A stretch of 64,000 nt of DNA from Syntrophales bacterium. GTDB lineage: Bacteria; Desulfobacterota; Syntrophia; Syntrophales; PHBD01. The translations under genes and the position numbers were made by a program. The DNA is taken from assembly GCA_963668175.1 (NCBI GenBank), contig OY764159.1:4256001-4320000 (forward strand), given 5' to 3'. Shown here in pieces: positions 16,568 through 43,650 of this stretch (within the stretch, counting starts at the first letter, position 1; the number at the start of each line of letters is the position of its first letter). The notes below the pieces were generated by a model. That model made no database searches. It was not told the DNA's origin and saw only the letters and a list, made by a program, of their open reading frames with translations.

Positions 16568-18415
16568 CTAGATTCGGTTCAAGTATGCGACTATTCTCTT
16601 GCCCGCCGATCCGTCCAATATATGCATGTATTTTGATGAATGATTATCGTGGAAGGCATGCATGAAATGATTCAATTCAGAAGGGTTCTCTCTGTTTCTT
16701 TTTACAATATCAATCAGTTCTTGCGAAGAGGATGCTCTTATCACATGTTCCCAATTAGTTCCATTCAATGGTGGATAAAATGTATCGGAATTGAAATGCG
16801 GTTCCAAGAATATGACCGGCACTCCGGCGGCCAATGCTTCATAAAAGGTATTCGAAATATTGCATATCAGCAGATCGACATCGTATATCAATTCACAAAA
16901 CGGAATGGCAAAGTCACTCATTTGCACTGCCGCAATGTCGACATCGTAACGCTCGAACATGTATTGATGGTAGGCCATGTTCTCATGGTGCGTACGATAA
17001 AGGATATTCATACCCATATCAAGCAGCCGCGGTATCGACATTATTAATTCCTTGAAATAGAGCTCCTGATACTGGAATCGGTCCAGCCTCGCATAAAAAT
17101 TGTCCGAATAGGTGTGCATCAAGATTTTCTTTATCGACGTGATGTTTTTACGCTTTTTCTCCGTGTAGTGGTCTGTACTCGGATTGCCCAGTTGTACCGA
17201 CTTCGCCTTTATCATATAAGGATAATTATCCGATTGCGTATCAAACACATCGGGTTTTATGATTAAATCCGGATTGGATCCCCTGGAGGCCTTCTGAGCG
17301 AAGCGGTACCCCATGATCCCGTGGTCGACAAACACGCTCCTGCATCCCGAATTCCTGCAAGCCTCAACAACGGTTTTCCCCCTTTCCGTCATCACATCCA
17401 CCAGAACCGTTTTCTCGATGTTGAAGTCGCCTATCCCCTTTTGGACTCGACGATAATACTTGAGAAGTTCCGGGATATGCACGGATACGATCCTCTGAAT
17501 GACGTTAAGATAAAAACGAGAGTAATCGATGTGATTATACGTGAAGCGCGTTTCATAATTCGGCGGCCTGGAAAGAATGAAGTTCTTTCGAAGCGTTTCC
17601 AGGTATTCCTCTTCCCGCCTATCGAAATCATAACGAACGCGATCGAAATCAAGTATCTTGACCAGTGCGGACAAACTCTTCCAGGCTGCCGCAGAAAATA
17701 TGTAACCGTTCTGCGTGTGCTCCAACAGACTATCGATGTTGAAATAGCAGAATAAATAGACCTTCTTTTCATTGCTCCGCAATATATGATGAACCTTTTG
17801 GAAACACTCCAGGATAATCGATTTGATGATATTTTTTATGCCGCCCACTCCTGCTTGACCGTTTATCAAACCCGTAAACACCGGCGGGATCATCTTTTCC
17901 GGCTTTATATAATAGTTCGGAATCTCCCCCAATTGCCTCAGAACATCCCTTATGAGACCTTCTTTATCGAAATATTGACCCTTGTCGTCCTCGTAGTAGA
18001 AAAATGAGTTGCTTGCATTTGAAAGATCGTAATATACGCTTTCGACATTTGGATATTGCTCAATGATTTTTCTGACAACTTCGCCATATTTCACCAAAAT
18101 ACTTTGCAGATAGGTCCTCGAAAACAGAATCTGGGTTATATCTCCAAAGGATACATTTTCAATAAGCGTCAAATCCTTTCCGTCAATCATATACCACTGC
18201 CGCGCAAACTCATCGGTTACTTCGTGGAGGTTTTTATAATCATCATCCGACAGATACTCTTCAATAAAATGGACTCTATGTCCTCCTGCTTTGCTGACCA
18301 GTTTATCGAAAGGCAGATAATTGAAGCAGACGACAAGATCATTCGCCGCATCAAATGATCCCGCCGAAATCATCCGGTCGATGCTGGCATCATTTTCGAT
18401 AAGGTATAAATTCAT
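16568..18415 (-). CDS. Orphan GT-B-like protein (candidate glycosyltransferase)
   Basis: 615 aa; FVDHG, LGNP, DLLICNISNTFYEALAAGVPVIF C-terminal motif; 4-bp overlap with upstream gene. Confidence 0.5.
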   Translation of the reverse strand: MNLYLIENDASIDRMISAGSFDAANDLVVCFNYLPFDKLVSKAGGHRVHFIEEYLSDDDYKNLHEVTDEFARQWYMIDGKDLTLIENVSFGDITQILFSRTYLQSILVKYGEVVRKIIEQYPNVESVYYDLSNASNSFFYYEDDKGQYFDKEGLIRDVLRQLGEIPNYYIKPEKMIPPVFTGLINGQAGVGGIKNIIKSIILECFQKVHHILRSNEKKVYLFCYFNIDSLLEHTQNGYIFSAAAWKSLSALVKILDFDRVRYDFDRREEEYLETLRKNFILSRPPNYETRFTYNHIDYSRFYLNVIQRIVSVHIPELLKYYRRVQKGIGDFNIEKTVLVDVMTERGKTVVEACRNSGCRSVFVDHGIMGYRFAQKASRGSNPDLIIKPDVFDTQSDNYPYMIKAKSVQLGNPSTDHYTEKKRKNITSIKKILMHTYSDNFYARLDRFQYQELYFKELIMSIPRLLDMGMNILYRTHHENMAYHQYMFERYDVDIAAVQMSDFAIPFCELIYDVDLLICNISNTFYEALAAGVPVIFLEPHFNSDTFYPPLNGTNWEHVIRASSSQELIDIVKRNRENPSELNHFMHAFHDNHSSKYMHILDGSAGKRIVAYLNRI

Positions 18416-21054
18416 ATCGAATCAATATGGGGAAATACAGGATTGGGGCCGGGCGGGAGCAGGTCATGCATTCTAAGAAAATCGCTGAACCGGAACAGCA
18501 ATCCGTCGTTATATCTGCGTGCTGCAAGCTGCAAACCGAACGGCATTTTCCGAGGCGACACAAAAACAGGAGCACTTATAACCGGAAGATAGGTCATTGT
18601 CCACATAAGCGCAGGGTCAGGCGTTTCCCTGATTTCTCTCTTGGGTGCATCACCGGCGGTACTCAACGTGATCATGATGTCAACGCCTTTCATGAACTTT
18701 TCCATCTCTGAAACCATCTTCTCCTGCGTCTTCAAGGCCGATTTGAATGTCTCCGGATCGATACTCAAGCCGTGCTGGATTAATTCATTCATGATCGGCG
18801 AAACGAGTTCGCGCCTGTTGAACTCATCTTTGAAATAATTCGACAACATTTTGTCGTAAATGATGCCGTGTATTTCGTGCGCTCTTTGCATAATATAGGG
18901 AGGGTCTATTTCGATGATCTCGACTGCCCCCGTCTTATCCAGTTTCTTCATCCACCGACTCAAGGCATCCTTTGCATAATCTTCCGCATATTCCCAGGTA
19001 TGCGTTCTGGTAAATGCAACACGCCAAGGACGATTGTGGGGTCTGCCTTGTCTTTTGCCTTCATTCATGGCCTTGTTTGAAATAGGGTAATTCTCCCCGC
19101 GTACGCGGAGCAACTCGAACATCGGCTCCATATCTTCATAATGAAGGACGAAATATCCCACCGTATCGAGACTGTCCGTCGTCTTCAAAATGCCCGTCCT
19201 GGGTATCAAGCCGAATGACGGCTTACAGCCGTAAATGCCGCAAAAACTGGCCGGACGGACAATCGATCCCGCCGTTTGCGTCGCGAGCGCCACAGGGACC
19301 ATACCGGTGGCTACCGCCACGGCTGAACCGCTTGATGATGTTCCGGGTGTTCTTGAAACATCATGGGGGTTGTTGGTCTTCCCCAACGTATGTACTGCAA
19401 ATTCCGCCGTCACCGTCTTGCCCGGGACCACCATCCCCAAATCCCTCAAATTAAAAACGACGCGGGCATCGTTACCGGGAATGAAGCCTTTCCAGAGAGG
19501 ACTTCCCATCTCCGTAGGATAATCGGTCGTGTTGAATATGTCCTTAACGCCGACGGGAATACCTTCCAAAGGTCTGCACGCATTTCCTTCCTTAAGCCTT
19601 CGTTCCGATTCCTCCGCCTGTTCCATGAGCTTTACGGGATCAAATATCTGCCACGCCTGGTATCTTTCTTCGTAGCGCTCAACCGCCTCAACGCACCAGC
19701 GGGCGATTTCCACAGGACTTATATGCCGCAATGCAACGAATGATAAGAGCCCGCTTATACTGAGATCGTGAAACGAACGGGGTTTCTCGATAGCCGTTTT
19801 CCTCAGCTTCTCTGCTTTTAAATCAGCGGATGCAGAGGAGGAGATTGGGTTGATCCCCCTGTGCTTCTCAATAATCTGTTGAGCAAACGGACGTATGCGT
19901 TCCTTGTTGCGTCTCTTCTTTGGAAACACCGGAAGATCGGCTTCTTTGAGTTCCTTTCTTCGCAGCTTCTTCATCGTTTCATAAAACTCGTCTTCCGACA
20001 TACCGGTGATCTCGAGAAAGTAATCGAGGGCCTCCGGACGGACAGGATCGAATCGACGCACAAGTTCATAACCTTCATCCCTCGACAACAGGCCGTTTCT
20101 GACATCCAGATTGGCATGGAACGTGGCCCGCCCATAGCCCCTCTTGAGATAACAAGTGAAATCGTGCATTCCCGGCATCATGCACTCGGCGCTCTTGTAG
20201 TGTTTGTATGTCTGCTCGATTTCGGTCTCTTTCCAATTAAAATGGTCCCGCACAAATTCCGTCTGTCTTTCATCGTCCCAAAAGTAATAATTGCCGATAT
20301 GGATGAACTGAACCCCCGCTTCGTCGAATTCTTCCTGGGACGGCAATTCAAATGGATAAACGTCCTTCCTTGTTATGTAATCGCACACCATGTCGTTAGG
20401 ATAGAACTTAGCGGACACATCGTAAAAATACTCTCTCCTGACAACCATAGGATTCGAATAGGAACTCATGCCATGCCCCTCCGCCGGCGGCTCACCGTAA
20501 ACGACAAGGGGTATTTTAAATTTCGTGGCGATGTGCAGCGGGAAAGCCCCCACTCCGGCGTGACAATGCCAGCAGGTATCTCCCAGGAGACCTAATGATC
20601 TTTTGGCCAATCGATTTACGAGGTCTCTGTTCGGCGTAAACATGATGTGGTCGACATTGAACGTCTCGAGCGAATTTACAAGGTTGTACCAACCCGTTTC
20701 ACTGTACCAATTATGATTAAATGTAACCGCGAGGGGCTTCATATGATGAATGTGACACAGGATATATAGCTGGAAGATGCTGTCCTTCCCTCCGCTGATA
20801 GGAACAATGCAATCATAATTTCCGTCTTCCTTGACCTTCGCTTTCGCGCTGTCCAGGATCACCTTCAACTGCTGCTGCCTTTCCTGCCAGTTGATGTGCA
20901 TTTTTTCTTCCGATGATCGGCAGGCCTGACAGATTCCCAATTCATCGAAAGTTGTTCCCTCTTCCGTCTCGGGAATACAGCAGCGTACGCAATAACGCAT
21001 GTGTTTATCGAATAAAGGTTTTCTGTTCTTCTTCATATATGTTTTTTGTTTCAT
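18412..21054 (-). CDS. Fusion: N-acetyl-sugar amidotransferase (WbuX/PseA-like) plus amidase-signature (GatA-like) domain
   Basis: N-half: YCVRCCIP, CQAC, YDCIVPISGGKDS PP-loop, CWHCHAG, YLKRGYGRAT. C-half: GIPVGVKDIF, GKTVTAEFA, TPGTSSSGSAVAVA, TQTAGSIVRPASFCGIYGCKPSFG, PFGLQL. Single uninterrupted 880-aa ORF. Confidence 0.88.
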   Translation of the reverse strand: MKQKTYMKKNRKPLFDKHMRYCVRCCIPETEEGTTFDELGICQACRSSEEKMHINWQERQQQLKVILDSAKAKVKEDGNYDCIVPISGGKDSIFQLYILCHIHHMKPLAVTFNHNWYSETGWYNLVNSLETFNVDHIMFTPNRDLVNRLAKRSLGLLGDTCWHCHAGVGAFPLHIATKFKIPLVVYGEPPAEGHGMSSYSNPMVVRREYFYDVSAKFYPNDMVCDYITRKDVYPFELPSQEEFDEAGVQFIHIGNYYFWDDERQTEFVRDHFNWKETEIEQTYKHYKSAECMMPGMHDFTCYLKRGYGRATFHANLDVRNGLLSRDEGYELVRRFDPVRPEALDYFLEITGMSEDEFYETMKKLRRKELKEADLPVFPKKRRNKERIRPFAQQIIEKHRGINPISSSASADLKAEKLRKTAIEKPRSFHDLSISGLLSFVALRHISPVEIARWCVEAVERYEERYQAWQIFDPVKLMEQAEESERRLKEGNACRPLEGIPVGVKDIFNTTDYPTEMGSPLWKGFIPGNDARVVFNLRDLGMVVPGKTVTAEFAVHTLGKTNNPHDVSRTPGTSSSGSAVAVATGMVPVALATQTAGSIVRPASFCGIYGCKPSFGLIPRTGILKTTDSLDTVGYFVLHYEDMEPMFELLRVRGENYPISNKAMNEGKRQGRPHNRPWRVAFTRTHTWEYAEDYAKDALSRWMKKLDKTGAVEIIEIDPPYIMQRAHEIHGIIYDKMLSNYFKDEFNRRELVSPIMNELIQHGLSIDPETFKSALKTQEKMVSEMEKFMKGVDIMITLSTAGDAPKREIRETPDPALMWTMTYLPVISAPVFVSPRKMPFGLQLAARRYNDGLLFRFSDFLRMHDLLPPGPNPVFPHIDSI

Positions 21055-21629: not shown

Positions 21630-22748
21630 TTATGAATAATGTTTCTCAAGAATATCGGTCAAAAATGTGAGGCATTTTTCCGATGAACCTTCCACGAACG
21701 CATCCGCTACTTTCGCGGCCTCCGGCGGACAAGGAACGCTTCTATTTTTGATTGCGAACTTTAATTCATCCCTGGTAAAGAAATACGGCGTAACGCCGTC
21801 TCTCGCGGACGCGAGCCACTCCTTTTCCAGAGGCCTGGGCAAAATGGAGAGAGTAGCCCGCCCCATAAGAACCGCCTCCACCAGCAGCATGGAGGTCATA
21901 CCAACCACGAAATCGGAACCGTAGATCACTTCGAGGGCATCTTCGTCTTTGCTTATGTAATCAAAGTGTTTTATAAACTCGCTGAATTCGTCAACCGTGT
22001 TTTTGGGATGGAGTCGCATGACGAGATAAGGGCGTTCGGCAAGCTCCGATAGACTGTCGAGAAATTCCTCCAAGACGATTTTCGTCCTTTCCGTATAACG
22101 CCCCGAGCCTTGCAGGGTATATTCCGAAGAATGGTGAAATTGCCCGGGTTCGAAGCCTGTCGATATCTCGGAGGCAAAAAGCCATATAGGTTGCCCCTTT
22201 GACCAGCCCGGAAAAAGCGTCGTACGCAGGTCATCGAGATTTTTCCTCTGCCATTCTTTTAATGCGGACCGGACATAGTCATAGCGAGGATGCCCACACA
22301 CGACCAGCCTTTCCTTTTGGTATCCAAGCGTCGTGAATCGATCGGCCGTCCAGCGGTCGGGAACCAGCAGCCAGTCGGGTGCGAATCTGAGCGGCTCCTT
22401 CGATGTTCCCCGGAAACGATACTCCGCATTGATGCCAGCGTCCACAACGCCGACGGATACCCTATCGGCCCTCTTGGCCGAATCTATAAGCTGGAGGCCT
22501 ATGGTTCTCGGATTCTCGGCCGTTCCGACTAACAAAACCCTGGGATTGTATTTTTTAAAAATTGCTGCGGCATCTTCTCCGAAAGGAACCCGCTCCGAGT
22601 CCACATGTAACCTATCCAGATAATCGCCTGCAATCCCCTGAGACAATAATTTCACTTTCAAGCCACGTCCCGAAAGCATCTCGGGGAACGGCTGCACATA
22701 GTTGGCGGCACCGGGATCTTCAACGAATATGAGTACGTCAATGTTCAC
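21630..22748 (-). CDS. Orphan GT-B-like protein (paralog of 51076..52227)
   Basis: EDPGAAN, LVVCGHP, MRLHPK, SDFVVGMTSMLLVEAVLMG. Confidence 0.5.
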   Translation of the reverse strand: MNIDVLIFVEDPGAANYVQPFPEMLSGRGLKVKLLSQGIAGDYLDRLHVDSERVPFGEDAAAIFKKYNPRVLLVGTAENPRTIGLQLIDSAKRADRVSVGVVDAGINAEYRFRGTSKEPLRFAPDWLLVPDRWTADRFTTLGYQKERLVVCGHPRYDYVRSALKEWQRKNLDDLRTTLFPGWSKGQPIWLFASEISTGFEPGQFHHSSEYTLQGSGRYTERTKIVLEEFLDSLSELAERPYLVMRLHPKNTVDEFSEFIKHFDYISKDEDALEVIYGSDFVVGMTSMLLVEAVLMGRATLSILPRPLEKEWLASARDGVTPYFFTRDELKFAIKNRSVPCPPEAAKVADAFVEGSSEKCLTFLTDILEKHYS

Positions 22749-22769
22749 GTATCGTACGCCATGACCCGA

Positions 22770-23780
22770 TCAGGGCATTGTAACAGATTTTTGTGAGTCA
22801 CGGGCAGAGTCCAATATGGCATGCAGTACTTCCGTTGTTCTTAAAGCCGAATCCCCGTCGCTCCATAGCGGTTTTGCTTCGGTAACGGCGTCCGCCAGGT
22901 TTGAATACATATGATACAAAGCATTTCCAATCGTTGACTCGATCTCGGCTAACCGATCGGACGCTATTTCTTTCTCCCCGCCGACGGCCCTGTTGCCGGA
23001 CAGGGGATAACGATAGATGCCCAGGCCTTCCTGCAGGATTGAAAGTCTTCCCATATCTCCCCAGATATCGAGGCCGTTCTCTCTGTAAAAAGCAAATGAC
23101 ACCGTGTTCATGGTAACAAGGAGGCCGCTTCGCATCCTGAGAGCAAAAGGCACATGGAAATCATTCGCCCCGAAAGGCTGGATATTTCCCAGCGCCCTGA
23201 CCGAATCGATCTCGCCGAAGAGCATCCTGACAAGATCGACCATATGGGAGCCGTTATTGAGCAGACCGTTCCCATACAAGCCGAAGACCGCCTGGGGATT
23301 GCCGATAATGTCATGCATCCCCACTGACGCCAGCGCTCTCAACCGCTCATCCGCTCTTCGCACGAAATTGACTTGGAGCAGGATATTTCTGCGCCTGCAG
23401 ATCTCGACGAATTTGCGGGCGTCATGGAGACTTAAGCCCAGGGGCTTCTCGGCAAGGACAGCCTTCAAGGAGGGCAATTTTTCTATGAAATGAAGCCGCG
23501 TATCCGGGGGTGTCGCAATGATGGCCACATCGGGCGCGTGGTCGGCAGCAAAATCATCTATGCTCGCGTTTACGCAATTTACCTGCCATTCCGTCGCGGC
23601 CTGCCCCAACGCACCTTCGGAGGGATCGATAACGGCTTCCCAGTCGAACAGGGGATGATCGCGCAAGACCTGGGCATGGGTGGCATAAGGAAAATGCTTC
23701 GCCATGATCTCGTCGCCGGCGTATCCGGCGGCGATCTTGCCAAAACCGACAAGGACGGTCTTCAACGGGGAGATTTTCAT
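22770..23780 (-). CDS. Gfo/Idh/MocA-family oxidoreductase
   Basis: LVGFGKIA, IATPP, LAEKP, VNFVRR, NNGSHMVD; ATG 23780 gives ATGA overlap with upstream stop. Confidence 0.88.
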   Translation of the reverse strand: MKISPLKTVLVGFGKIAAGYAGDEIMAKHFPYATHAQVLRDHPLFDWEAVIDPSEGALGQAATEWQVNCVNASIDDFAADHAPDVAIIATPPDTRLHFIEKLPSLKAVLAEKPLGLSLHDARKFVEICRRRNILLQVNFVRRADERLRALASVGMHDIIGNPQAVFGLYGNGLLNNGSHMVDLVRMLFGEIDSVRALGNIQPFGANDFHVPFALRMRSGLLVTMNTVSFAFYRENGLDIWGDMGRLSILQEGLGIYRYPLSGNRAVGGEKEIASDRLAEIESTIGNALYHMYSNLADAVTEAKPLWSDGDSALRTTEVLHAILDSARDSQKSVTMP

Positions 23781-24517
23781 CGGGTAGGTTTTTCTTCGCA
23801 ATCCCGATTGATTTCGAGCAGCGCCGGGTCCTGTCTCAGCAATTCCATGATTTCCTCAATACCGAAAACATCGCCGAATTTGGGTTGAAGGCGCCGATAG
23901 ATCTCGGTGATGAACCGGTGATCCTCCGGATAATCCAGTTGAAAACGGTAATCCGGGCCATGCCATCTTTCCGGCGCAAAAAGATGAATGATGCGGTACT
24001 TCTCGGGATGTTCATAGAAATACAAAGAGACATGCTCTCGGACGGCCGGGTCCTTGACATCCTTGTCTATTTTTTCAAGCTCGCCGAAAGAAAACACTTG
24101 AATGTCTTCACCCATCGGAAACGACAATTTGCTCACGTTGGCAACGACGTCGCAGTCGTTTTCAAGAAACGTTTTCACTCCCATATCGATCAAACCGGGG
24201 TCGATCAGGGTACAGTCCCCCGTAACCTCGACAATGATATCCGACCCCATCGTACGGTGCGCCTCCACAACCCGCAGCAGGACATCTTCCTCGCTGCCGC
24301 GATAAAAGGGCACTTTCTCTTTTTTGGCCCAGGCTTCCAGGGCATCATCGGCCGATGCGACTGACGTGGCCAATACGATCCCATCCAGCAGTTTGCAGTG
24401 TTTCAGCCTTCTCGCCAGTCTTGTCAAAGCGGGTTCGCCGTTGATATCCGCCAGCACCTTACCCGGAAATCTTGAAGATCCCATGCGCGCTTCGATACTG
24501 GCTACAATCTTTGGCAT
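23777..24517 (-). CDS. SpsF-type cytidylyltransferase (EARM variant)
   Basis: SIEARMGSSRFPGKVL, RGSEEDVL, VTGDC, REHVS, QLDYPED. Confidence 0.85.
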   Translation of the reverse strand: MPKIVASIEARMGSSRFPGKVLADINGEPALTRLARRLKHCKLLDGIVLATSVASADDALEAWAKKEKVPFYRGSEEDVLLRVVEAHRTMGSDIIVEVTGDCTLIDPGLIDMGVKTFLENDCDVVANVSKLSFPMGEDIQVFSFGELEKIDKDVKDPAVREHVSLYFYEHPEKYRIIHLFAPERWHGPDYRFQLDYPEDHRFITEIYRRLQPKFGDVFGIEEIMELLRQDPALLEINRDCEEKPTR

Positions 24518-24526
24518 ATTGACCTC

Positions 24527-25792
24527 CTACTCCAGTGAATTGAGTTCCAATCTGTGACGATGGACTTTTCTGATGGCCTCAACCATCAATTCCAAGACCT
24601 CAGGCGAAATATCATACATGCATGGTTCGTAAACAAGCAGCTCCTCTGAGTGCATGCGTTCGGCCACCGGACATGCACCCTCTTTATAATCGATCGTAGA
24701 GAGGTTGAAAGGATACGACCCCAGGGCTATTTTCTTTTGAAACATGGGCAGCATATACAGCGGTCGCACATATCCCGTCGAGTGCGGAAAGCCCTCCGCC
24801 TCCAGGGCACGGCTGAACTGCCGGCGCGAAACACCCAGCGCATCGCCGTCGACTTTCATGCCCCAGACATAATAAACATGCCTGCAATCCGACCTCACTA
24901 CCGGAGGCGTTAGACCCGCAAGACCCCGAACACCCTGCGACAGTCTTTCGGCGACTGTCGTTCTCGCCTCCACATGCCGGTCTATTTCCTTGAGTTGTTC
25001 AATACCAATGGCGGCACTCATTTCAGTTAAGCGGTAATTGAAACCGATGATGCCGCTGATATTCTCGACTTCCATCGGACCGACGACGTTTTCACCGTGA
25101 TTCCTTATCATCCTCAGACGAAGAGCCAGATCGTCGTCATCGGTCACGCACATCCCACCCTCGCCCGTATGGATATGCTTGTGGTAGTTCAGGCTGAACA
25201 CGCCGATATGACCGATCGTCCCCGCATACCGGCCTTTTTCTCCGGCAAGAGGTCCCTGCGCGTTGTCCTCGATGAGATATATCCCGTGCCGATCCGCCAT
25301 CGATCTCAGCCTTTCGAGCTGCGCCGGGTGTCCGAAGAGATTGACGGCGATGATGGCGCGTGTGCGAGGCGAAATCAGGCCTTCTACACACTCCGGATCA
25401 AGACAGAACGTATCCGGCTCGATATCGGCAAAGACCGGGATCCCGCCGTAAACGACCGGGGCAACGACCGTCGCCGACATGGTCAAAGGAGGAACGATCA
25501 CTTCGTCGCCCGGCTTTAAATCCACGGCACCCATGGCGGCGAACAATCCGGATGTCGCCGAGTTTACGGATATCGTATGCCTGATTTTGAAACGTTCGCT
25601 CCACATCCTTTCAAACTCTTTAACTACGGGTCCCCCGAGATACTGGTCACCCGGGCTGCCATAGAAGCCCGAGAGCGTCCCGGATCGAATAACAGAAGCA
25701 ACGGCGTTGAGTTCCTTATCTCCTATCGAATTGTACTTGGGCAGTTCTTGCTTCAGGACCGGCTCGCCGCCCAGAATGGCCAATTGTGACAT
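24527..25792 (-). CDS. DegT/DnrJ/EryC1/StrS PLP aminotransferase
   Basis: VNSATSGL, GDEVIVP, IEDNAQ, FSLNYHKHIHTGEGG (PLP Lys), GFNYRL. Confidence 0.92.
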   Translation of the reverse strand: MSQLAILGGEPVLKQELPKYNSIGDKELNAVASVIRSGTLSGFYGSPGDQYLGGPVVKEFERMWSERFKIRHTISVNSATSGLFAAMGAVDLKPGDEVIVPPLTMSATVVAPVVYGGIPVFADIEPDTFCLDPECVEGLISPRTRAIIAVNLFGHPAQLERLRSMADRHGIYLIEDNAQGPLAGEKGRYAGTIGHIGVFSLNYHKHIHTGEGGMCVTDDDDLALRLRMIRNHGENVVGPMEVENISGIIGFNYRLTEMSAAIGIEQLKEIDRHVEARTTVAERLSQGVRGLAGLTPPVVRSDCRHVYYVWGMKVDGDALGVSRRQFSRALEAEGFPHSTGYVRPLYMLPMFQKKIALGSYPFNLSTIDYKEGACPVAERMHSEELLVYEPCMYDISPEVLELMVEAIRKVHRHRLELNSLE

Positions 25793-25795
25793 TTG

Positions 25796-27652
25796 TTATC
25801 CTCGGCTGTTTTCGATGAACTGGAACCAATATTCAAGATTCAGCAACTGCCAGAGAAACATCATGTGGTTTTCCTTCGTCTCCCGGTTTTCAACGATTCT
25901 CTGGTGCTCCCTGACGATATTCATAACTGCGGATATATTATAAACGCCTCTCTCCTGGAAGCGTTTCGTATGGATCATATCCATCAGGAGTTCCTGACCT
26001 CCGTTTGAGAACCAAACGTGAGCCGGAGCGTTCCATCCGGTCTTTTTTATCCTGCATCGCGTGGTTTCCGGCAGAATGTCCTTCATCGCCTCCCTTAAAA
26101 GTATCTTGGTGACCCCGTCCCTGATCTTTAGCGCTCCGGGGATGCGAAACATAAACTCGACGAGGCGGTAATCCAGAAAGGGTTCAAAATGGGAAAGCCC
26201 GGCAGCCTCGGCCTGCCTGTCCTCCGCCCTCAGGCAGCACGGCATTGTTTCCCGGGTTATATCCTGGAACGTCCTGTTCTTCAGAAAACTTTTAAAGGGA
26301 TGTTCCATCACCGGCTCAAATTTTTCGAGCGGATAATAATCCCTGTTGACCGTATGGACATATTTATTCATCCGGTTGCGTTCCGGCTTGCATGTACCAG
26401 GAAGAGACAGGTCCGTACATCTGGAAAGGTAATCATTGACGACGGATTCGTTTTTTCTGAATATCGGATGATCATGATACTCCACCCATTTGCCGATTTC
26501 CCTCGACAGCTGCTCTTCCTCGCCCCGCGTTTTCAGGTCGGCAAAATGGTAGAAGAAGTATTCATACTCGCCGGCGTTCAATTCATCTCCGCCGAGACCG
26601 CCGAACAACGATCCGAATCCCTCCTCCGCTGCCTTCCCGCATAACAGGAAGTGGGAAAGCCATGTGGCCGTTGCAACGGGTTCGTCGTTTGCGGCTATCA
26701 TTTTCGGGACCACATCCCGAAGGTCCGGGATACCGATTTCGATGGAGTACCATCGCTCGACGTATGACTCCAGGATTGTCCGGATATCCTCCGACTCATC
26801 GTAGGTCTTGTCTTCGTACGTAGTCGATAACGCCATCTGTTTCCTGCCGTTTATCCGTGATGAGGCGGCAAGTATCGAAGAAGAGTCCATGCCTCCGGAT
26901 AAAGTGAAGGCAGGCTTATGGGCCTTGGCGTACCTTATCTTTACGGCATCGAAAAGCAGGGAGCGATACTGTTCCGCAAGATCCTTTTCCGTCCCGGCAA
27001 AATCGGGTACTTCATGCAATATCCAGTAGCGTTCCGTTTCGATGCGTGTTCCATCCCATTTCAGAATTCTACCGGCCGGCAGCTGCCTGATTTCTTCGAA
27101 AGGTGTACCTTCCTGATCGTTATCGAAATATCGATAGTGCGACCCGGCGAAAAGTGCGACATATTTTCGGTTTGCAGCACAATTGACGCCAGGCAGCCCC
27201 AGAAACGACGTGAGTCGGGAGGAGAAAGCCAAGCAACCGTTTTTTTGTAAGTAATACAGTGGCTTGATGCCAAGCCGATCCCGCGCCAGCCACAGGAGCC
27301 CTGTGTCTGCATCATACAAGGCAATGGCAAAATCCCCGTTGATCCGTTCCGCGGCATTTCGAAATCCATGCTTCCTGTAAAGCTCATAGAACAGAGCGAC
27401 ATCCGGTTCCGTCCCATATTCATCAAATTCACGCGCGTTGTATATATAGCCGTCCATGGCGATGATCACGCCGTCTGAGTCCAGCGGTCGGCATCCCATC
27501 TCCAATCCGGACCAGCCGAAGGAGGCGCATTTAGACGCCATCGTTTGTCGTTTTTCGGCGGGTTGCTGACGGACCCTTTGCATCATGAGTTGGAGCGCTC
27601 GTGAATTGCGCTCGGGCCCTTCTTCACTCACGTAACCGTATATTCTCGACAT
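25796..27652 (-). CDS. AsnB-like ATP-dependent amide synthetase with degenerate glutaminase domain
   Basis: Starts MSRIYG (no Cys); retains DGYIYN, RDRLGIKPLY, LSGGMDSS, GLGGDELNAG, PFLDYRL. Confidence 0.85.
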   Translation of the reverse strand: MSRIYGYVSEEGPERNSRALQLMMQRVRQQPAEKRQTMASKCASFGWSGLEMGCRPLDSDGVIIAMDGYIYNAREFDEYGTEPDVALFYELYRKHGFRNAAERINGDFAIALYDADTGLLWLARDRLGIKPLYYLQKNGCLAFSSRLTSFLGLPGVNCAANRKYVALFAGSHYRYFDNDQEGTPFEEIRQLPAGRILKWDGTRIETERYWILHEVPDFAGTEKDLAEQYRSLLFDAVKIRYAKAHKPAFTLSGGMDSSSILAASSRINGRKQMALSTTYEDKTYDESEDIRTILESYVERWYSIEIGIPDLRDVVPKMIAANDEPVATATWLSHFLLCGKAAEEGFGSLFGGLGGDELNAGEYEYFFYHFADLKTRGEEEQLSREIGKWVEYHDHPIFRKNESVVNDYLSRCTDLSLPGTCKPERNRMNKYVHTVNRDYYPLEKFEPVMEHPFKSFLKNRTFQDITRETMPCCLRAEDRQAEAAGLSHFEPFLDYRLVEFMFRIPGALKIRDGVTKILLREAMKDILPETTRCRIKKTGWNAPAHVWFSNGGQELLMDMIHTKRFQERGVYNISAVMNIVREHQRIVENRETKENHMMFLWQLLNLEYWFQFIENSRG

Positions 27653-29164: not shown

Positions 29165-29562
29165 GGCGCCTCGGTCTGTATACCGTATTCTTTGATTTTC
29201 GTTTCCAGTTCTCGAAGGTGTTCCTCATTGTCCAGCCAGCATATGATCTCCAGCGGTTCCTTGCCGGCATAATCGAGGAAGAGGTCTTCCTTGCCTTCCT
29301 CGACGAGAAGAATGAAGAAGCGGTCGATCCTGTTCTTTACCAGAACCGCTTTCAAGCCGAAACTCTGGAGCCTCCCGTTTAAAGACGGCGTCGCGTAATA
29401 TCCCCACGACTTTCTGACCACGTCGTATTCCCTTCCTGCGGAAGTTACGAACGTCACTTGCTCGTCGGGTTCGAGTTGAATCTCGCCGCAGTCGCTGATC
29501 TCGATCTTCACGTCGAAACCCGCTTCGAACTTTCGCGGAGGAATATTTTGTTTGAACTTCAT
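29161..29562 (-). CDS. Hypothetical protein (about 133 aa), translationally coupled on both sides
   Basis: ATG 29562 (MKFKQNIPPRKF...) overlaps upstream TGA (ATGA); its TGA overlaps the next ATG. Confidence 0.75.
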   Translation of the reverse strand: MKFKQNIPPRKFEAGFDVKIEISDCGEIQLEPDEQVTFVTSAGREYDVVRKSWGYYATPSLNGRLQSFGLKAVLVKNRIDRFFILLVEEGKEDLFLDYAGKEPLEIICWLDNEEHLRELETKIKEYGIQTEAP

Positions 29563-30680
29563 TGCCACGTCCAGTCTTCTATGAGAAAATCCGGCATCTT
29601 CCATACGCCGTCGACATATTTCCAGATGGTTGTGTTCCTGAATTTCTCGATTGTCCGGAAGAATTTCTCCGTTGTTATGCCCGCAAAAATACAGAATTTC
29701 TCGATGTCGCCGTATGGTGTCTGATCGCCCTTCCGGCGAATGATATCGATTGCATCGTCCCGGCTTAACCGCCCGTTTCTGATTTCCAGAGACAGGTTAT
29801 CAAAAAGCCTCGTAAACCCGAATTTATACCACTTCAGATAATGATGGATGGAAATGAAATCGTCATCTATATCCGCATAGTCATAGTATCCTGTTTTGGG
29901 ACCCTCCAGACTGCTCTTAAAACCATGCTCCTTCGCGACACGATACGTCACTTCAGGGTCCCACGGAAAATAATATCCTAAAAAGACGGCAAGGACGTTT
30001 TTTTCTTCAAGTTCGGAATCGCCGGGGCCAAAGTACGGAGTCAATTCCTTCTCCGACAGCTGATCATCTATCCAATCGTGTGCCGTGGTGCCATGCGACA
30101 CGCCGAATTTCTTAAGCCAGTTGCTGTCCAGCTTAAAACCCGTCAGCTCTTCTTCATCCGTTCCGTATTCAAATGCCGAATTTTCACCCCAAACGACAAG
30201 GGGAATATCGAACTTAACCGCAATCTTCAACGGTATATTGAAGAGCGCAAGGTGCATTGGAATGGCCGTACTGCCGAAGCGTTCCAGCGCCTTGAGCATG
30301 AACTTCTTTTCCACGTTCGGATTGATGCTGTAATCGATATGATCGACGCCGAGGCTTATCAGATTCTCCAGGTTCTTGCGCCCGACTACCGTCCTTGCCG
30401 GCGTCTTCCATGTAACGGCCAGAGGATGCATACCGAATTCGAGGCAGCGGACGACCTGCCACGTACTGTCTTTACCTCCGCTGACAGGTATCACACAGTC
30501 GTAGCCGCTTCCTCTTCTTTGAGCATTGCGGACGACCTCACGGAACTGTTTTTCCCGTCCAGCCCAATCGATGGTATCGTATTTTGAACCCGAACTTTTG
30601 CACGCATTGCAGACCCCGTCGTTTCCAATAATCAAGCCTGGTCTCGTGTCGGGAAGGACACATTTTAAACAATACTTCAC
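29559..30680 (-). CDS. N-acetyl-sugar amidotransferase (WbuX/PseA-like, stand-alone)
   Basis: YCLKCVLPDTRPG, CNAC, YDCVIPVSGGKDS, WGENSAFEYG, YLKWYKFGFTR. Confidence 0.9.
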   Translation of the reverse strand: MKYCLKCVLPDTRPGLIIGNDGVCNACKSSGSKYDTIDWAGREKQFREVVRNAQRRGSGYDCVIPVSGGKDSTWQVVRCLEFGMHPLAVTWKTPARTVVGRKNLENLISLGVDHIDYSINPNVEKKFMLKALERFGSTAIPMHLALFNIPLKIAVKFDIPLVVWGENSAFEYGTDEEELTGFKLDSNWLKKFGVSHGTTAHDWIDDQLSEKELTPYFGPGDSELEEKNVLAVFLGYYFPWDPEVTYRVAKEHGFKSSLEGPKTGYYDYADIDDDFISIHHYLKWYKFGFTRLFDNLSLEIRNGRLSRDDAIDIIRRKGDQTPYGDIEKFCIFAGITTEKFFRTIEKFRNTTIWKYVDGVWKMPDFLIEDWTWQ

Positions 30681-30692
30681 GCGGCTCCCTCA

Positions 30693-32513
30693 TCATCCGT
30701 TGATTTCATAAAACATCTTTGCATTGATAAAGCTGAACATAAACTTACTGTGGCTGTTTGGAAAGAAATCCCGATCAATCAAAGACTCTATACAATCTCT
30801 TTTGATGATATCGTAAATGGGGTTGTCTTCCAGCAAGTAATTTCGCGTATCTTCATCCTTGAAGTCGATTATCGAGTCGATGGACGCGTTAAAGCCCTTT
30901 TTCTGCCTGTCCAGACGGACTTTATCGTTCAGAATCCCTTTCATGGCTTCCCGCAGGATGTATTTCCCGAATCCGCCGACAATGAGATATTCTGCGGGAA
31001 TAGAATAAGCGAAATCAAAAAGCCGCGAGTCCAGGTACGGACTGCGGTTCTCAATGGAATATTTCATTGAATTCAAATCGTCTTCATGCAGTATCACCCG
31101 CGTTGCTTCGTGAAACAACTCATTCATCATCCTATTACGAAGAAGCGAATCACAGAAATGATGCTCCGTAAACGGTTCAAAAAAATCCCGCGTCAAATAG
31201 GTCTGAAATTCTTCACTCTCGTCAAACACATGCTTACGCATGTTCCGATCTTCCATGTAGAGATTCGGATTTCTCAAGAGCGGATTCCGGACAAATACCT
31301 GAATATTCCTTTGCCAATCCGACAGGTATTTCCCGTAATCCGGATGATTTCGTATTTCATAAAGGTGCAAAATAAAATGATCGTAATATCCCGTGAACAA
31401 TTCATCGGCGGCTGTTCCGGAAAAAGCCACACGGTATCCGCTGCCGGATATGGCTTCAGACAGCAGGGAATGCACAAAATACGTAATCGTTGCGACGGGA
31501 ACATCGTGGTATCGCACCAATTCGCGAAGTCTGCTCAACGATTGCTCATGATGAAGTTCGATCAGGGTATGCCTGCAGCCGAGGTCATTGACCGTAGCCA
31601 TAATGTTGTCATACTCGTTGTATCGCTCGTCACTCTCGATGATGGAAAAAGAGGCGATATCGCAGCCGAATTCCTTCACAGCGATCGAGACAAGGGACGC
31701 CGAGTCAATTCCGCCGCTGAGGCAAAACGCCAGGGGTACATCGGATCGAAGTCTGATTTTCACGCTTTCGATGAGCCTTTGTCTCACCCCTTCAACTGCT
31801 TCTTCAATGCTCATCTTCTCGGGGCGACATGAGGGCTCCCAATATTTCCTGAAGCTCATCCCCAGTCGCCGGTCTATTGTGAGGTTCGTCGCGTACGGTA
31901 TTTCCTCTATTTCGTTAAAAAAGGTCTCATTCTTCTTGTAAAGGGATTTGTAGCCGTTCACCAGATACCGAAGGATCTGTTTCGTATTGACGGTAAAGCT
32001 TCTCCCGGAAAGCAATTTCAGAAATTTTATCTCTGAAGCAAAATAAACGGCGTCGTCCGTCCTATAGATATACAGAGGTTTTTCGGCAAAGCGGTCTCGA
32101 GAGAGAAAGAGTGTCCCGTCTTTTTGATTGTAAATCGCAAACGCCCACATACCCTCAAAGAATTCAACGCACCGCGTTCCGTATTCCATATAAGCGCGCA
32201 ACAGCACTTCCGTATCCGATGTCGTGTTAAATTTTACGCCCTTCTTCTCCAGTTCATCCTTTATTTCCACATAATTGTATATTTCGCCGTTATAGACGAC
32301 AGCATAGTCGCCTATCACAAAAGGCTGATTGGATCGCACATCCAGGTCGATAATACTTAGTCGGGCATGCAGAAGCGCTACATTCATTCCATCGCGACCG
32401 AACGACATGAACTGTCGGCTGTCCGGCCCTCGATTCTTCATGATATCGAGAGTCTTGAAAACGCGGGCTTCATCAATCTTAGCTTTGCCTATATATCCTG
32501 CAATTCCACACAT
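30693..32513 (-). CDS. asnB: AsnB-like glutamine-hydrolysing amidotransferase
   Basis: MCGIAG, NRGPD, HARLSIID, YNGEIYN, LSGGIDS, SGTAADELF. Confidence 0.92.
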   Translation of the reverse strand: MCGIAGYIGKAKIDEARVFKTLDIMKNRGPDSRQFMSFGRDGMNVALLHARLSIIDLDVRSNQPFVIGDYAVVYNGEIYNYVEIKDELEKKGVKFNTTSDTEVLLRAYMEYGTRCVEFFEGMWAFAIYNQKDGTLFLSRDRFAEKPLYIYRTDDAVYFASEIKFLKLLSGRSFTVNTKQILRYLVNGYKSLYKKNETFFNEIEEIPYATNLTIDRRLGMSFRKYWEPSCRPEKMSIEEAVEGVRQRLIESVKIRLRSDVPLAFCLSGGIDSASLVSIAVKEFGCDIASFSIIESDERYNEYDNIMATVNDLGCRHTLIELHHEQSLSRLRELVRYHDVPVATITYFVHSLLSEAISGSGYRVAFSGTAADELFTGYYDHFILHLYEIRNHPDYGKYLSDWQRNIQVFVRNPLLRNPNLYMEDRNMRKHVFDESEEFQTYLTRDFFEPFTEHHFCDSLLRNRMMNELFHEATRVILHEDDLNSMKYSIENRSPYLDSRLFDFAYSIPAEYLIVGGFGKYILREAMKGILNDKVRLDRQKKGFNASIDSIIDFKDEDTRNYLLEDNPIYDIIKRDCIESLIDRDFFPNSHSKFMFSFINAKMFYEING

Positions 32514-39833: not shown

Positions 39834-41756
39834 TCATTCTTCCCACAAATTATCCGTCATTTGAAAGAATTCTTCGTTGATATGATTCTTTTCGATATAT
39901 CGACTCACTGAGAATTTCAAAGACTCATGCACATCACTACTACACTCACACCGATCAAGATAATCATTAAAGAACTCTCCGACTCTTCTACCTGCCTCAA
40001 AATCATCGTTGAAATTAAGTCTTTTCTTCCACGAGCTCAAATCCCCTATAGACTTATCTCCCTTTTCCGCCAGGATGACGGCATCCTCTATTTCATCCAG
40101 CGTTCTATAAACTATCTTCTGTGATCTATCTTTGTAGAAAGGATGCTTCGACACCCATGAGCAGTCCCAATGTACCGATCTCCCCCCATATAACGCAGAT
40201 ATTACACCGGCTGAATTGATCCCATAACACACACAGAGATCGCTATTTCTTGAAGCCACCATCGGCAGAACACTGTAATCAAGTGCAACCAATCTCTTCT
40301 CTTTAATCAGAGTATTCATTCGATTTACTATCTGCCGTCCTTCTGGCAGATAGGATAGTTCTTCGATATTCTGACCCTTACATTTCGCGACGGCTCCCCA
40401 GTGCGGATTTGCATCCAATATATCCAAAATTCTTAAATAGAATCTCGACAAGCTCGCAGGCGTCTGGTGCAAATGATTCGCTACGCTGGAATCGAATATC
40501 GTGAATACAAAATCGAGACCTTTCAGTCCACTATCATTAAGAAAACCGTTATTCTTCGGCGTTATCCATACCCCGGAAGGCAAGACGTAATTACACGTAT
40601 TATAGCCTGAATTTATAACATCATGGAATAACTTTCCCCACACGAAGAAAACATGGAATGGAAAAAGATGAATTGGCGTAAGAACAACATGATAGCTCGA
40701 CCAATGAAAGCCGACGGAAATACCTCCAACGGCTTCAATTGCATTCCTTTGTACTTCCTGTTTCCAGGATACGTCCTGATGCTGAATAAATATTTTCACC
40801 TTATACCGCGAAAACAGCATTTTATAGATGTGCAGCCAGTATTCGTATTGAAAGTGAAGCAGTCTTAGAAATAGAGGCGACCCTTTGTGATGAAATTCGA
40901 TGCACCGGATAAAAATATTTCTTATCGACCCCCATCTGAACGCTACCGAATTGAGGTTTGCAGCATGTCCGCCATCAATCCATCCGATGTTATCATATTT
41001 CTCCTCTATTTCTTTCAATACTTTGCTATTTGGAGGCGAATCCGGTCTATCAAGATAGCAGACGCAATCGTATTTTCCTCTATCTAAGTATTTCATCCAA
41101 AAAAAGAAATCTACATTATCACCGGCTGCGTATTCAACCCATACGGATGGCCTGATCGCCTTGATATTTGTTTTGACCTCCTTTTTTGAAATCCTTGTCA
41201 AAAATACGCGTAGCGAATAATATATGGGTACGAGGAATAATCTCAAGTGCTTCAGATTAAATGACTCTTTTACAAGAAAACCCTTTTCCTTCCAAAAATC
41301 CTTCATCGCAATATTATGAGGATCTTTTTCAAAAATGATGATATTCGTTTGATCGTTAATCTGATCTCTTGTGTTATGATCCACTATGGTGGCGAATCGC
41401 GCTCTTCTTTGAAGATTCGCAGTCAAATAGCATTTGATCATATTCTGATAACCTGACGTCTTATCGTTTAAATACGTCTTGCAGAACTCCTCAAGAAATT
41501 TTCTCATATTCGCATCTAATTGATAATATAAGCTGCACCCGGAGCCATCCTTCATATCGCGCAAGAACGGCTCGCACGAGAAATACTTATCTTGATTGTA
41601 TCTTTTCAAAATGGAGAGGGTTTTTTTAGCAATTCGTGTTACCAGAAGCATATCGTAATAAATAATCGTATTTCTTTTCATCATCACGGATAGCAGTGAA
41701 AGCATCAAACGGACGATACCGAGTCTCTCTATCCAGATTGTCTGTCTCTTCGCCAA
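39834..41756 (-). CDS. Large orphan polysaccharide-biosynthesis protein, possible GT-B fold
   Basis: 640 aa AT-rich ORF; FFVWG, IFDSS, SDLCVCYGINSAGVISALYG; function not assignable by eye. Confidence 0.45.
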   Translation of the reverse strand: MAKRQTIWIERLGIVRLMLSLLSVMMKRNTIIYYDMLLVTRIAKKTLSILKRYNQDKYFSCEPFLRDMKDGSGCSLYYQLDANMRKFLEEFCKTYLNDKTSGYQNMIKCYLTANLQRRARFATIVDHNTRDQINDQTNIIIFEKDPHNIAMKDFWKEKGFLVKESFNLKHLRLFLVPIYYSLRVFLTRISKKEVKTNIKAIRPSVWVEYAAGDNVDFFFWMKYLDRGKYDCVCYLDRPDSPPNSKVLKEIEEKYDNIGWIDGGHAANLNSVAFRWGSIRNIFIRCIEFHHKGSPLFLRLLHFQYEYWLHIYKMLFSRYKVKIFIQHQDVSWKQEVQRNAIEAVGGISVGFHWSSYHVVLTPIHLFPFHVFFVWGKLFHDVINSGYNTCNYVLPSGVWITPKNNGFLNDSGLKGLDFVFTIFDSSVANHLHQTPASLSRFYLRILDILDANPHWGAVAKCKGQNIEELSYLPEGRQIVNRMNTLIKEKRLVALDYSVLPMVASRNSDLCVCYGINSAGVISALYGGRSVHWDCSWVSKHPFYKDRSQKIVYRTLDEIEDAVILAEKGDKSIGDLSSWKKRLNFNDDFEAGRRVGEFFNDYLDRCECSSDVHESLKFSVSRYIEKNHINEEFFQMTDNLWEE

Positions 41757-42891: not shown

Positions 42892-43650
42892 TCACGAAGT
42901 GACGGGCATTCTGTCGTTAGTCATAAGCAGCGTTGAATAATAATCCTTGATTTTCTCAATTTCGATTTCTAATTGTCTTCCCTCTATATCTCTTTTAAAT
43001 GCCCTTCTCAGTATGGCCATTGAGCAGTTATACTCCGACATGATTTTAAGAATTTCCTTCGTTCGTAACGGACTGCCGCCACCGATGACAGTGAGACCCC
43101 CAAATCCAAAAGGACGGTCTGGTATTGATCTTCTTATCCGCCAAACGATATCGTGTTTAAGAACATCATATGCAAATGACAAATTATAATCGATCGCCAT
43201 GTCATTAAGACCGACATAATATTCGTCGAATCCTAAATCCTTCAAATCCGCCGCGATATCCACGGACGCTCTTGTTTCAAAGAGCAGACTTTTTTTGACG
43301 CCATTTCCGGCGAATTTTATAAAGCTTGCGACTTCTCCCGTTGTATGAAACATGGGGAGTATGACAATATCCGCTCCTTCAGAAGCAATCGCATGAATCT
43401 CCGCTTCACTTTCAGAATGTATCGGATTTGTTCGAGCCAAGATGGGAATGTGCACCGCCTTCCTTATTCTTCGCAGGTCCTCAAGCGATGCCTTATTGAC
43501 TTCGAGATGATACCCAGACTGCCTTTCGGATTTTCCTCTAAACTCGAAATCGACAACGATACGATCTATGCCGGCATCTTCAGCCCGTTTCGCCAGTTCT
43601 GGATCATGGGTGAATAGCATTAATGATGGCAATCGTGAGTACATCGGCAT
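42892..43650 (-). CDS. Aldolase/citrate-lyase (HpcH-like) fold protein
   Basis: DRIVVDFE, ARTNP, ILPMF, LLFET, YVGLND (metal-binding E and GxxD). Confidence 0.7.
   Translation of the reverse strand: MPMYSRLPSLMLFTHDPELAKRAEDAGIDRIVVDFEFRGKSERQSGYHLEVNKASLEDLRRIRKAVHIPILARTNPIHSESEAEIHAIASEGADIVILPMFHTTGEVASFIKFAGNGVKKSLLFETRASVDIAADLKDLGFDEYYVGLNDMAIDYNLSFAYDVLKHDIVWRIRRSIPDRPFGFGGLTVIGGGSPLRTKEILKIMSEYNCSMAILRRAFKRDIEGRQLEIEIEKIKDYYSTLLMTNDRMPVTS

Follow-up and report, generated by a model that had tools for sequence, protein, structure and literature searches.

A WbuX-type sugar amidotransferase joined to an amidase-signature hydrolase in a Syntrophales nonulosonic acid island: a candidate amidase-fed amidine synthase

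A sugar amidotransferase and an amidase in one reading frame

The window considered here is a 64,000-nucleotide stretch of the genome of a Syntrophales bacterium (assembly GCA_963668175.1, contig OY764159.1, positions 4,256,001 to 4,320,000 of the forward strand), and positions are counted from its first letter unless another locus is named. On its minus strand, as are all window features described below, a single open reading frame (ORF) at 18412..21054, beginning with ATG and including the stop codon, encodes a protein of 880 residues (P0001) in which an N-acetyl sugar amidotransferase of the WbuX family is followed by an amidase-signature domain. A known type of synthetase is thus joined to an unusual partner, and the union is real and recurrent. 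Sequence comparison and structure modeling suggest that the protein is probably a self-contained amidine-forming enzyme of a pseudaminic (Pse) or legionaminic (Leg) acid type of pathway, fed by its own amidase, which would replace the HisH/HisF2 pair.

The amino-terminal half, a PP-loop ATP pyrophosphatase (WbuX, or N-acetyl sugar amidotransferase, NASAT), occupies residues 19 to 362 (19969..21000) and matches the NCBIfam model TIGR03573 from end to end (1-344 of 344) with 319.9 bits against a cut-off of 203.2. It carries a tetracysteine zinc-ribbon motif (C22, C25, C42 and C45; 20920..20991), whose frequency is 1.00 in amidase-partnered and HisH/HisF-partnered WbuX proteins alike, and the PP-loop SGGKDS (S87 to S92; 20779..20796), the signature of ATP alpha-beta cleavage; the loop and the four cysteines are conserved in at least 90% of 46 fused homologues. 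Both features are described in section 2.3 of the report on the Legionella enzyme LpNASAT (PMC10607449), the structure of which (PDB 8wex) aligns to residues 35 to 343 of the fusion with 143 bits. The two halves are separated by a Ser/Ala-rich linker at residues 399 to 421 (19792..19860; GINPISSSASADLKAEK), predicted to be disordered by AlphaFold2 (predicted local distance difference test, pLDDT, below 50), and there is no methionine between residues 362 and 455. An earlier note on this DNA, drawn from its letters, had described one 880-residue frame with a low-complexity linker lacking a nearby methionine, and these points hold, as do the motifs it quoted, SGGKDS, VGVKD, GTSSSG and AGSIVRP, all of which are found in the translation.

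The carboxy-terminal half is covered by the Pfam family PF01425 (Amidase) at residues 450 to 853 (18496..19707), with the fold beginning near residue 425; the match scores 237 bits against a threshold of 27 (E 5.8e-70) and takes in positions 2-444 of the 445 in the profile. Alignment with malonamidase E2 (MAE2) places the catalytic Lys504 of the VGVKD motif (19543..19545) on Lys62 of that enzyme, cis-Ser573 of GTSSSG (19336..19338) on Ser131, the nucleophile Ser597 of AGSIVRP (19264..19266) on Ser155, and Arg600 (19255..19257) on Arg158, within an S-x-x-R-P arrangement common to MAE2. Arg158 of MAE2 is presumed here to bind the carboxylate of the substrate, and the structures matched by the amidase half include an R158Q mutant of MAE2. 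None of these four residues (K504, S573, S597 and R600) varies among 46 fused homologues. The amidase half is complete and, judged by these residues, a catalytically intact enzyme of the malonamidase-E2 kind. Among solved structures MAE2 is likewise the closest in sequence, with 197.8 bits over residues 490 to 855, as against 118.5 bits for GatA over the N-terminal two thirds only, and the best match by fold is again MAE2 (1obi; Foldseek TM 0.90, versus 0.80 for GatA). None of the NCBIfam amidase models examined reached its cut-off (gatA, TIGR00132, 186 bits against 481.1; PRK06169, 200.5 against 506). The term GatA-like, used in the earlier note for an amidase with a complete triad, is therefore imprecise, although the triad itself is confirmed. 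Identity with housekeeping GatA was dropped for a domain that is fused to WbuX and scores so far under the equivalog cut-off. Since the closest relative is MAE2 and not GatA, the amide donor need not be glutamine.

These affinities also bear on an alternative role for the domain, which is unlikely. In this alternative the amidase performs a different sugar or acyl step (removal or exchange of an N-acyl group, or hydrolysis or transfer of an amide in the manner of ClbL), WbuX draws on free ammonium or on housekeeping HisH/HisF, and the fusion joins two consecutive steps. It is in keeping with the resemblance to stand-alone MAE2 more than to GatA, and with the presence of secondary-amide and acyl-transfer enzymes, namely FAAH, aryl acylamidase and the transacylating ClbL, among the PDB matches; it fits poorly with the invariant Arg600, the counterpart of MAE2 Arg158, and with the nearest amidase relatives (MAE2, GatA, AtzE and allophanate hydrolase), all of which liberate ammonia from primary amides.

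When 5.8 billion clustered proteins were searched there were 220 matches, and among the best 120, which were listed, 63 span at least 92% of the 880 residues at 39-94% identity; one fused orthologue, P0042, is annotated from Solidesulfovibrio alcoholivorans. Where these full-length relatives are named they are called only "N-acetyl sugar amidotransferase," while free amidases of about 485 residues and 47-56% identity, also among the listed relatives, appear as "amidase" or "GatA family." Three further genomes of the same phylum (G354, G191 and G378) carry the fusion in a single open frame of 873-894 residues. The fusion is therefore not an assembly artefact, and that reading was dropped. As a whole, the notion that the fusion arose in assembly or sequencing, or that the amidase half is an inactive structural appendage, is hardly credible. 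It can point to the separate halves encoded by most genomes of other phyla, and to the fact that the sole read-level check over the junction probably comes from the assembly's own sample: a public-run contig covering 19300-20300 at a word depth of 14.4, without a single difference, so that the junction singled out for checking in the earlier note (19780-19900) is intact in it. The source genome is, in addition, a single closed contig of 4.57 Mb, and an inactive appendage is difficult to reconcile with a catalytic triad that does not vary among the 46 homologues.

Partnering of WbuX with the amidase or with HisH and HisF

Among species-representative genomes 15 loci were found, of which 12 hold both halves and 3 are cut by contig ends. 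They belong to Lachnospiraceae, Babeliales, two Woesearchaeota, Gammaproteobacteria, Legionellales, Sulfurospirillum, Acidobacteria, Oligoflexia, Cytophagales, Pedobacter and others, and in all 12 of the loci of other phyla with both halves WbuX and the amidase are separate, adjacent and mostly overlapping ORFs. Conversely, when an unbiased sample of 401 genomes of the window's own phylum was searched with the amidase half, the five best matches (45-100% identity) were all fused or adjacent to WbuX, and the remaining 12 had 31-40% identity. The two halves are thus an obligate pair across many phyla, fused or side by side.

Other architectures occur among the relatives. WbuX proteins of the amidase clade are fused to an N-terminal GNAT domain (PF13302) in P0085, P0089, P0105, P0110, P0115 and P0118, and one cluster, P0090, has WbuX with a C-terminal formyltransferase domain. 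Many relatives have a second, degenerate WbuX-like half domain (aligned to about residues 60-280) with no SGGxDS PP-loop; it is located between WbuX and the amidase in forms of about 1120-1180 residues (P0022, P0024, P0041, P0043, P0046, P0048, P0051 and P0054) and at the N-terminus in forms of about 600-650 residues (P0075, P0082-P0084, P0087, P0104, P0120 and L024/L025), and is possibly a pseudo-enzyme spacer or a dimer mimic.

The known acetamidino systems include wbuXYZ of E. coli O145, WbpG with HisH2/HisF2 in P. aeruginosa, PseA of C. jejuni and AglXYZ of Methanococcus. The presence of HisH and HisF was compared between amidase-linked and other WbuX loci in two samples. The first comprised the 401 genomes of the window's phylum, with 55 WbuX genes at or above the family cut-off in 41 genomes. 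The scores of the WbuZ model TIGR03572 nearly overlap those of housekeeping HisF (150 of about 396 matches listed), and this model was replaced by scans of the flanks, about 9.4 kb on each side of all 55 genes, with the source genome's own HisH2 and HisF2, the amidase half and the cassette proteins. Five WbuX genes are amidase-linked, exactly those next to the five best amidase matches, four of them fused (the source genome G000, G354, G191 and G378) and one split (G061), and none has HisH/HisF within about 9.4-10 kb, compared with 39 of the 50 other WbuX genes (Fisher p=0.0013). With 12 loci from other phyla added the contrast becomes 0/17 versus 39/50 (p=6e-9), a figure in which relatives are not independent of each other. 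The second sample comprised 301 genomes of Campylobacterota, with 93 WbuX genes at or above the cut-off in 67 genomes (loci L078-L170); only two are amidase-linked, in G401 (S. arcachonense, the seed genome) and G575, and neither has HisH/HisF nearby. Over all samples HisH/HisF is near 0 of 18 distinct amidase-linked loci and 84 of 141 others. The earlier note had asked whether homologous loci routinely carry hisH/hisF as well, and within about 10 kb these 18 loci do not. In the five genomes whose only WbuX is amidase-linked (G354, G378, G191, G401 and G575), moreover, there are just two PF00977 genes each, the number expected for housekeeping hisA and hisF, one of the two in G191 being split over two contig ends.

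The window itself agrees with this pattern. Pfam finds no HisH- or HisF-like protein among its 53 ORFs of at least 150 residues, and a phmmer search of all six-frame ORFs of at least 50 residues with the genome's own HisH2 and HisF2 gave no match even at E<=10, so that the statement in the earlier note that the window has no hisH/hisF paralogs is confirmed by both routes. The genome does have one such pair. About 135 kb before the window (G000:C1:4120075-4122614; locus L003, 861-3400) a canonical triad follows a hexapeptide acetyltransferase and consists of HisH (TIGR01855, 235 bits), a HisF-like protein of the NCBIfam "AglZ/HisF2 family acetamidino modification protein" (WbuZ; NF038364, 368.5 against 310) and a third WbuX (238.7 bits); its HisH/HisF2 pair is the only one in the genome. 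The absence of hisH/hisF is accordingly a feature of the window and not of the genome, in which three WbuX paralogs have three different neighbors: HisH/HisF2, the amidase and AsnB.

A maximum-likelihood tree was built from 112 WbuX domains, and in it the 63 amidase-partnered rows, whether fused or split, bacterial or archaeal, all belong to a single clade (Shimodaira-Hasegawa-like approximate likelihood ratio test, SH-aLRT, 100; one label change). The clade joins, with a weak support of 81, a HisH/HisF-partnered group (L033-L037, L041 and L043) that has the same NeuB, cytidylyltransferase, DegT and GNAT neighbors. GNAT and WbuX are therefore constant and HisH plus HisF2 or the amidase variable, which is the pattern of a module swap: in otherwise like clusters the amidase pair holds the place of HisH and HisF2 (WbuY/WbuZ, AglY/AglZ). 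This occupation of exactly the HisH and HisF2 slot, with none of the 18 loci having both, is difficult to explain if the amidase serves a separate sugar or acyl step. Within the clade, fused and split forms require 3 changes on the tree, of which well-supported branches force at least 2, and by this reconstruction the fusion in the window would be one of at least two or three independent events of fusion or fission. The usual ammonia conduit can likewise be fused to WbuX, since locus L044 (15020-17098, equal to L054 8471-10549) encodes a natural HisF-WbuX fusion of 693 residues (HisF2 208 bits, WbuX 228 bits) preceded by HisH. A HisH-HisF fusion lies beside a WbuX in L051 (7557-9245).

Predicted interface, gene neighborhood and proposed reaction

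Structure prediction points to a defined contact between the two halves. AlphaFold2, run on the full protein with a 46-sequence alignment, gives a mean pLDDT of 89 and a predicted template modeling score (pTM) of 0.88, with values below 50 confined to residues 1-8, the linker at 399-421 and residues 877-880. When the two halves were instead modeled as a complex (WbuX 1-395 against amidase 425-880, each with a 46-row alignment, in three runs with three controls), the interface score ipSAE was 0.92 in the three runs versus 0.00 for the best control, with 97-99 contacts and a partner pLDDT of 92, and the runs share at least 93% of their contacts. Of the solved complexes 116 of 157 reach the mark applied to ipSAE, as do 2 of 215 mismatched pairs, a calibration that is rough only, the present prediction having used its own alignment. 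No like complex has been solved, so that a good prediction is unlikely to reproduce a known structure. A fixed WbuX-amidase interface is thus predicted by both approaches. On the WbuX side it comprises residues 23-24, 38-41, 49-60, 257-286 and 317-331, which flank the tetracysteine motif; in LpNASAT the side of the pocket at this motif is described as conserved, acidic and probably catalytic (PMC10607449, section 2.3). Within the clade, conservation is higher at interface positions than over the remainder of the WbuX domain (0.80 versus 0.71, p=0.013), and F258, E262, R263, E266, E276, K284 and L322 are strikingly clade-specific. A predicted interface so large and rigid exceeds what the handing over of a substrate between consecutive steps would need.

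Directly upstream of the fusion lies a GNAT N-acetyltransferase gene (PF13302; 21080..21649), a constant neighbor of the WbuX clade, the counterpart of which in L018 is weakly PseH-like; it probably installs the N-acetyl group that is later amidinated. It is preceded in the conserved cassette by genes assigned through Pfam and NCBIfam to a GT-B/PseG-like protein (21630-22748), a GFO/IDH/MocA oxidoreductase (22770-23801), a CMP-sugar cytidylyltransferase (23777-24517) and a DegT aminotransferase (24527-25792), a set (21630..25792) that also flanks the pair in L011-L025, L028, L049, L052 and L055. The genes are closely packed, -25 to +25 bases apart, and in the order of transcription the run begins with an AsnB-type gene (25796-27652) and continues through DegT, cytidylyltransferase, GFO/IDH/MocA, GT-B/PseG-like and GNAT genes to WbuX-amidase, its final biosynthetic gene. 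In the cultured Sulfurospirillum arcachonense DSM 9755 the operon that contains the split pair (L018 9965-11098 and 11088-12389) encodes PseB, PseC, PseF, PseG and PseI, all above their equivalog cut-offs, followed by an unassigned protein of 328 residues, a GFO oxidoreductase, another DegT, a GNAT with weak resemblance to PseH, the WbuX and amidase proteins and a PseD-like protein of flagellin modification. Such a content suggests that the product is an acetamidino derivative of an acid of the pseudaminic type, formed perhaps at the level of a UDP-hexose or of the free or CMP-activated acid. Acetamidino-Pse on flagellin requires PseD.

The neighborhood also raises the question of the product. 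It is quite improbable that the amidase-fed enzyme makes something other than an acetamidino sugar, such as a formamidino or other acyl-amidine group, or a carboxamide, on a nonulosonic acid. Such a product would give a place to those cassette genes that lie beyond the canonical Pse set (the GFO oxidoreductase, the second DegT and the GT-B-like gene, to which no role is assigned), and would suit both the WbuX-formyltransferase fusion P0090 and the distance of the clade from characterized WbuX proteins, LpNASAT scoring 143 bits. The full-length match to TIGR03573 above its cut-off, the acetyltransferase GNAT as constant neighbor and fusion partner, and the PseD-like gene that follows the pair in Sulfurospirillum all argue instead for acetamidino formation.

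Taken together, these data are consistent with the following reaction for an amidase-fed amidine synthase. The amidase half would hydrolyze a carboxyl-bearing primary amide by way of Ser597, cis-Ser573 and Lys504, the donor being perhaps glutamine, asparagine or a small omega-amido acid, and the ammonia would cross the fixed domain interface, next to that side of the WbuX pocket where the zinc ribbon lies. The PP-loop half would spend ATP, yielding AMP and pyrophosphate, in activating the carbonyl of a sugar N-acetyl group, probably one added by the adjacent GNAT, and attack of ammonia on the activated carbonyl would then give the acetamidino group. Transfer of ammonia from the amidase to WbuX is what we infer from sequence and models: of the earlier note's proposal that the amidase replaces HisH/HisF as supplier, the replacement agrees with the partnering pattern, the clade and the predicted interface, while the channeling of ammonia is a presumed step.

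Several observations weigh against this reading. WbuX genes with no amidase often have no HisH/HisF nearby either (11 of 50 in the phylum sample and 46 of 91 in Campylobacterota), so that missing hisH/hisF alone cannot carry the argument, and neither partner stands beside any WbuX in 7 of 41 WbuX genomes of the phylum and 26 of 67 of Campylobacterota. WbuX can evidently work with free ammonia or with an unlinked supplier, and the frequency of WbuX genes with no dedicated supplier nearby favors the assignment of the amidase to a different step. So does the fusion of WbuX to other enzymes of the pathway, GNAT in P0085 and formyltransferase in P0090, since fusion alone then does not mean ammonia supply. 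The Campylobacterota contrast (0/2 versus 45/91, p=0.50) is not significant with only two amidase-linked genes; the tree rows labeled as amidase-partnered were partly gathered by similarity to the query; the source genome and G061 each carry a HisH/HisF2 pair elsewhere; and the clade-specificity of interface positions, 0.45 against 0.39 for the rest of the domain, is not significant (p=0.30). The amidase, finally, is nearer to a free-standing hydrolase than to the ammonia-channeling GatA, to our knowledge the sole amidase-signature enzyme known to channel ammonia, and enzymes with this signature are capable of other chemistry, as ClbL illustrates.

The remainder of the window is rich in related functions. 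Every family-matched ORF of at least 150 residues lies on the minus strand, and the island includes two NeuB-type synthases, six CTP_transf_3 cytidylyltransferases, four DegT aminotransferases and four AsnB-type genes, together with methyltransferases, B12-radical-SAM enzymes, a carbamoyltransferase, a flippase and glycosyltransferases. By its gene content the window is a very large nonulosonic acid island, and the six CTP_transf_3 and two NeuB proteins suggest that several distinct nonulosonic or related activated sugars are made from one locus of at least 60 kb. Three sizeable ORFs inside the sugar island stand apart from this inventory: one of 615 residues (16568-18415), which overlaps the stop codon of the fusion by 4 bases, has no Pfam family and resembles only weakly the model TIGR04396 ("surface carbohydrate biosynthesis protein"); the other two, of 640 (39834-41756) and 252 residues (42892-43650), have no Pfam or NCBIfam family.

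The AsnB-type gene that heads the cassette ending with the fusion encodes a protein that starts MSRIYGY and lacks the N-terminal nucleophile cysteine of the glutaminase domain, whereas the other three in the window begin MCGI; it is not a conserved member of the cassette in other genomes. A second, stand-alone WbuX (29559-30680; TIGR03573, 331 bits) follows 12 bases after an AsnB-type gene (30693-32513) whose MCG start is intact. Both the stand-alone WbuX and the Cys-less AsnB are present as the earlier note described them, and its suggestion that the fused amidase also supplies them finds no support: the stand-alone WbuX belongs to a separate clade, which always lies directly behind an orthologous AsnB with intact Cys2. 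The fused amidase was dropped as its supplier on account of this different clade and partner. The orthologous AsnB-WbuX pair, usually behind NeuB, occurs also in G049, G148, G041 and G172, and the tree places the five AsnB-paired WbuX proteins together (support 89), four of them having no HisH/HisF nearby; PF00977 genes number two in G049, two in G041 and none in G148. AsnB may be a third kind of WbuX partner, or the pair may simply carry out two consecutive amidations.

Comparison with known systems

Antigenicity, phage recognition and autoagglutination are influenced by the acetamidino sugars that flagellins, lipopolysaccharides and capsules carry. Biochemical reconstitution of the WbuX/PseA step has hardly been achieved, partly because three proteins are needed, and a version in a single chain or two genes with its own ammonia source would, if the proposal is correct, offer a convenient entry to the enzymology and structure of the family. 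It would also provide a second amidase-signature ammonia generator after GatCAB, and a clear instance in which an ammonia-supply module has been displaced by a non-orthologous one. The broader claim is evenly balanced: alongside the class-I and the nitrilase-type glutaminases, amidase-signature hydrolases would form a third, so far undescribed class of dedicated ammonia partner for PP-loop ATP pyrophosphatases, and would have displaced HisH/HisF2 in a sugar amidine synthase clade that is widespread in bacteria and DPANN archaea, the donor being perhaps asparagine or a small omega-amido acid, recognized through the malonamidase-type arginine, and not glutamine. Present database names for the fusion and for the free partners hide the link between WbuX and the amidase. 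No publication describing an amidase partner of WbuX was found in a literature search that lay mostly outside subscription journals; a Sphingomonas paper lists a WbuX/HisF2/HisH trio.

The closest systems are those of WbuX, WbuY and WbuZ, that is, NASAT with a HisH-like glutaminase and a HisF-like barrel, which have the same synthetase family, lie in similar sugar clusters and presumably catalyze the same reaction. The fusion locus differs from WbuXYZ and AglXYZ in having an amidase domain instead of a HisH- or HisF-like partner, and its WbuX belongs to a clade of its own. LpNASAT of Legionella pneumophila (PDB 8wex), the only solved member of the synthetase family, has the PP-loop and the tetracysteine motif in common with the fusion; unlike it, LpNASAT is a stand-alone protein of 468 residues, and the passages of PMC10607449 covered here make no mention of glutamine, HisH, an amidase or a tunnel. 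For the other half the nearest known enzyme is malonamidase E2 of Bradyrhizobium japonicum (PDB 1ocl, 1o9o), the best match by sequence and fold, whose Lys62, Ser131, Ser155 and Arg158 are all matched in the fusion. It is a free-standing hydrolase of 414 residues with no synthetase partner, and at a Foldseek identity of 30% its substrate may differ from that of the fusion. GatA of GatCAB, the functional precedent invoked in the earlier note, also belongs to the amidase-signature enzymes and provides an ATP-dependent partner with ammonia; the fused amidase is not GatA, and its partner is a PP-loop sugar enzyme and not GatB/GatC. Two further enzymes have a similar logic, glutamine-dependent NAD+ synthetase, in which a nitrilase-type glutaminase is fused to a PP-loop synthetase, and GMP synthetase, in which a class-I glutaminase is fused to a PP-loop domain. 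As in these, an ammonia-generating hydrolase would be joined in the fusion to a PP-loop ATP pyrophosphatase that activates a carbonyl; the hydrolase is of a third, unrelated fold, and the acceptor would be the N-acetyl group of a sugar.

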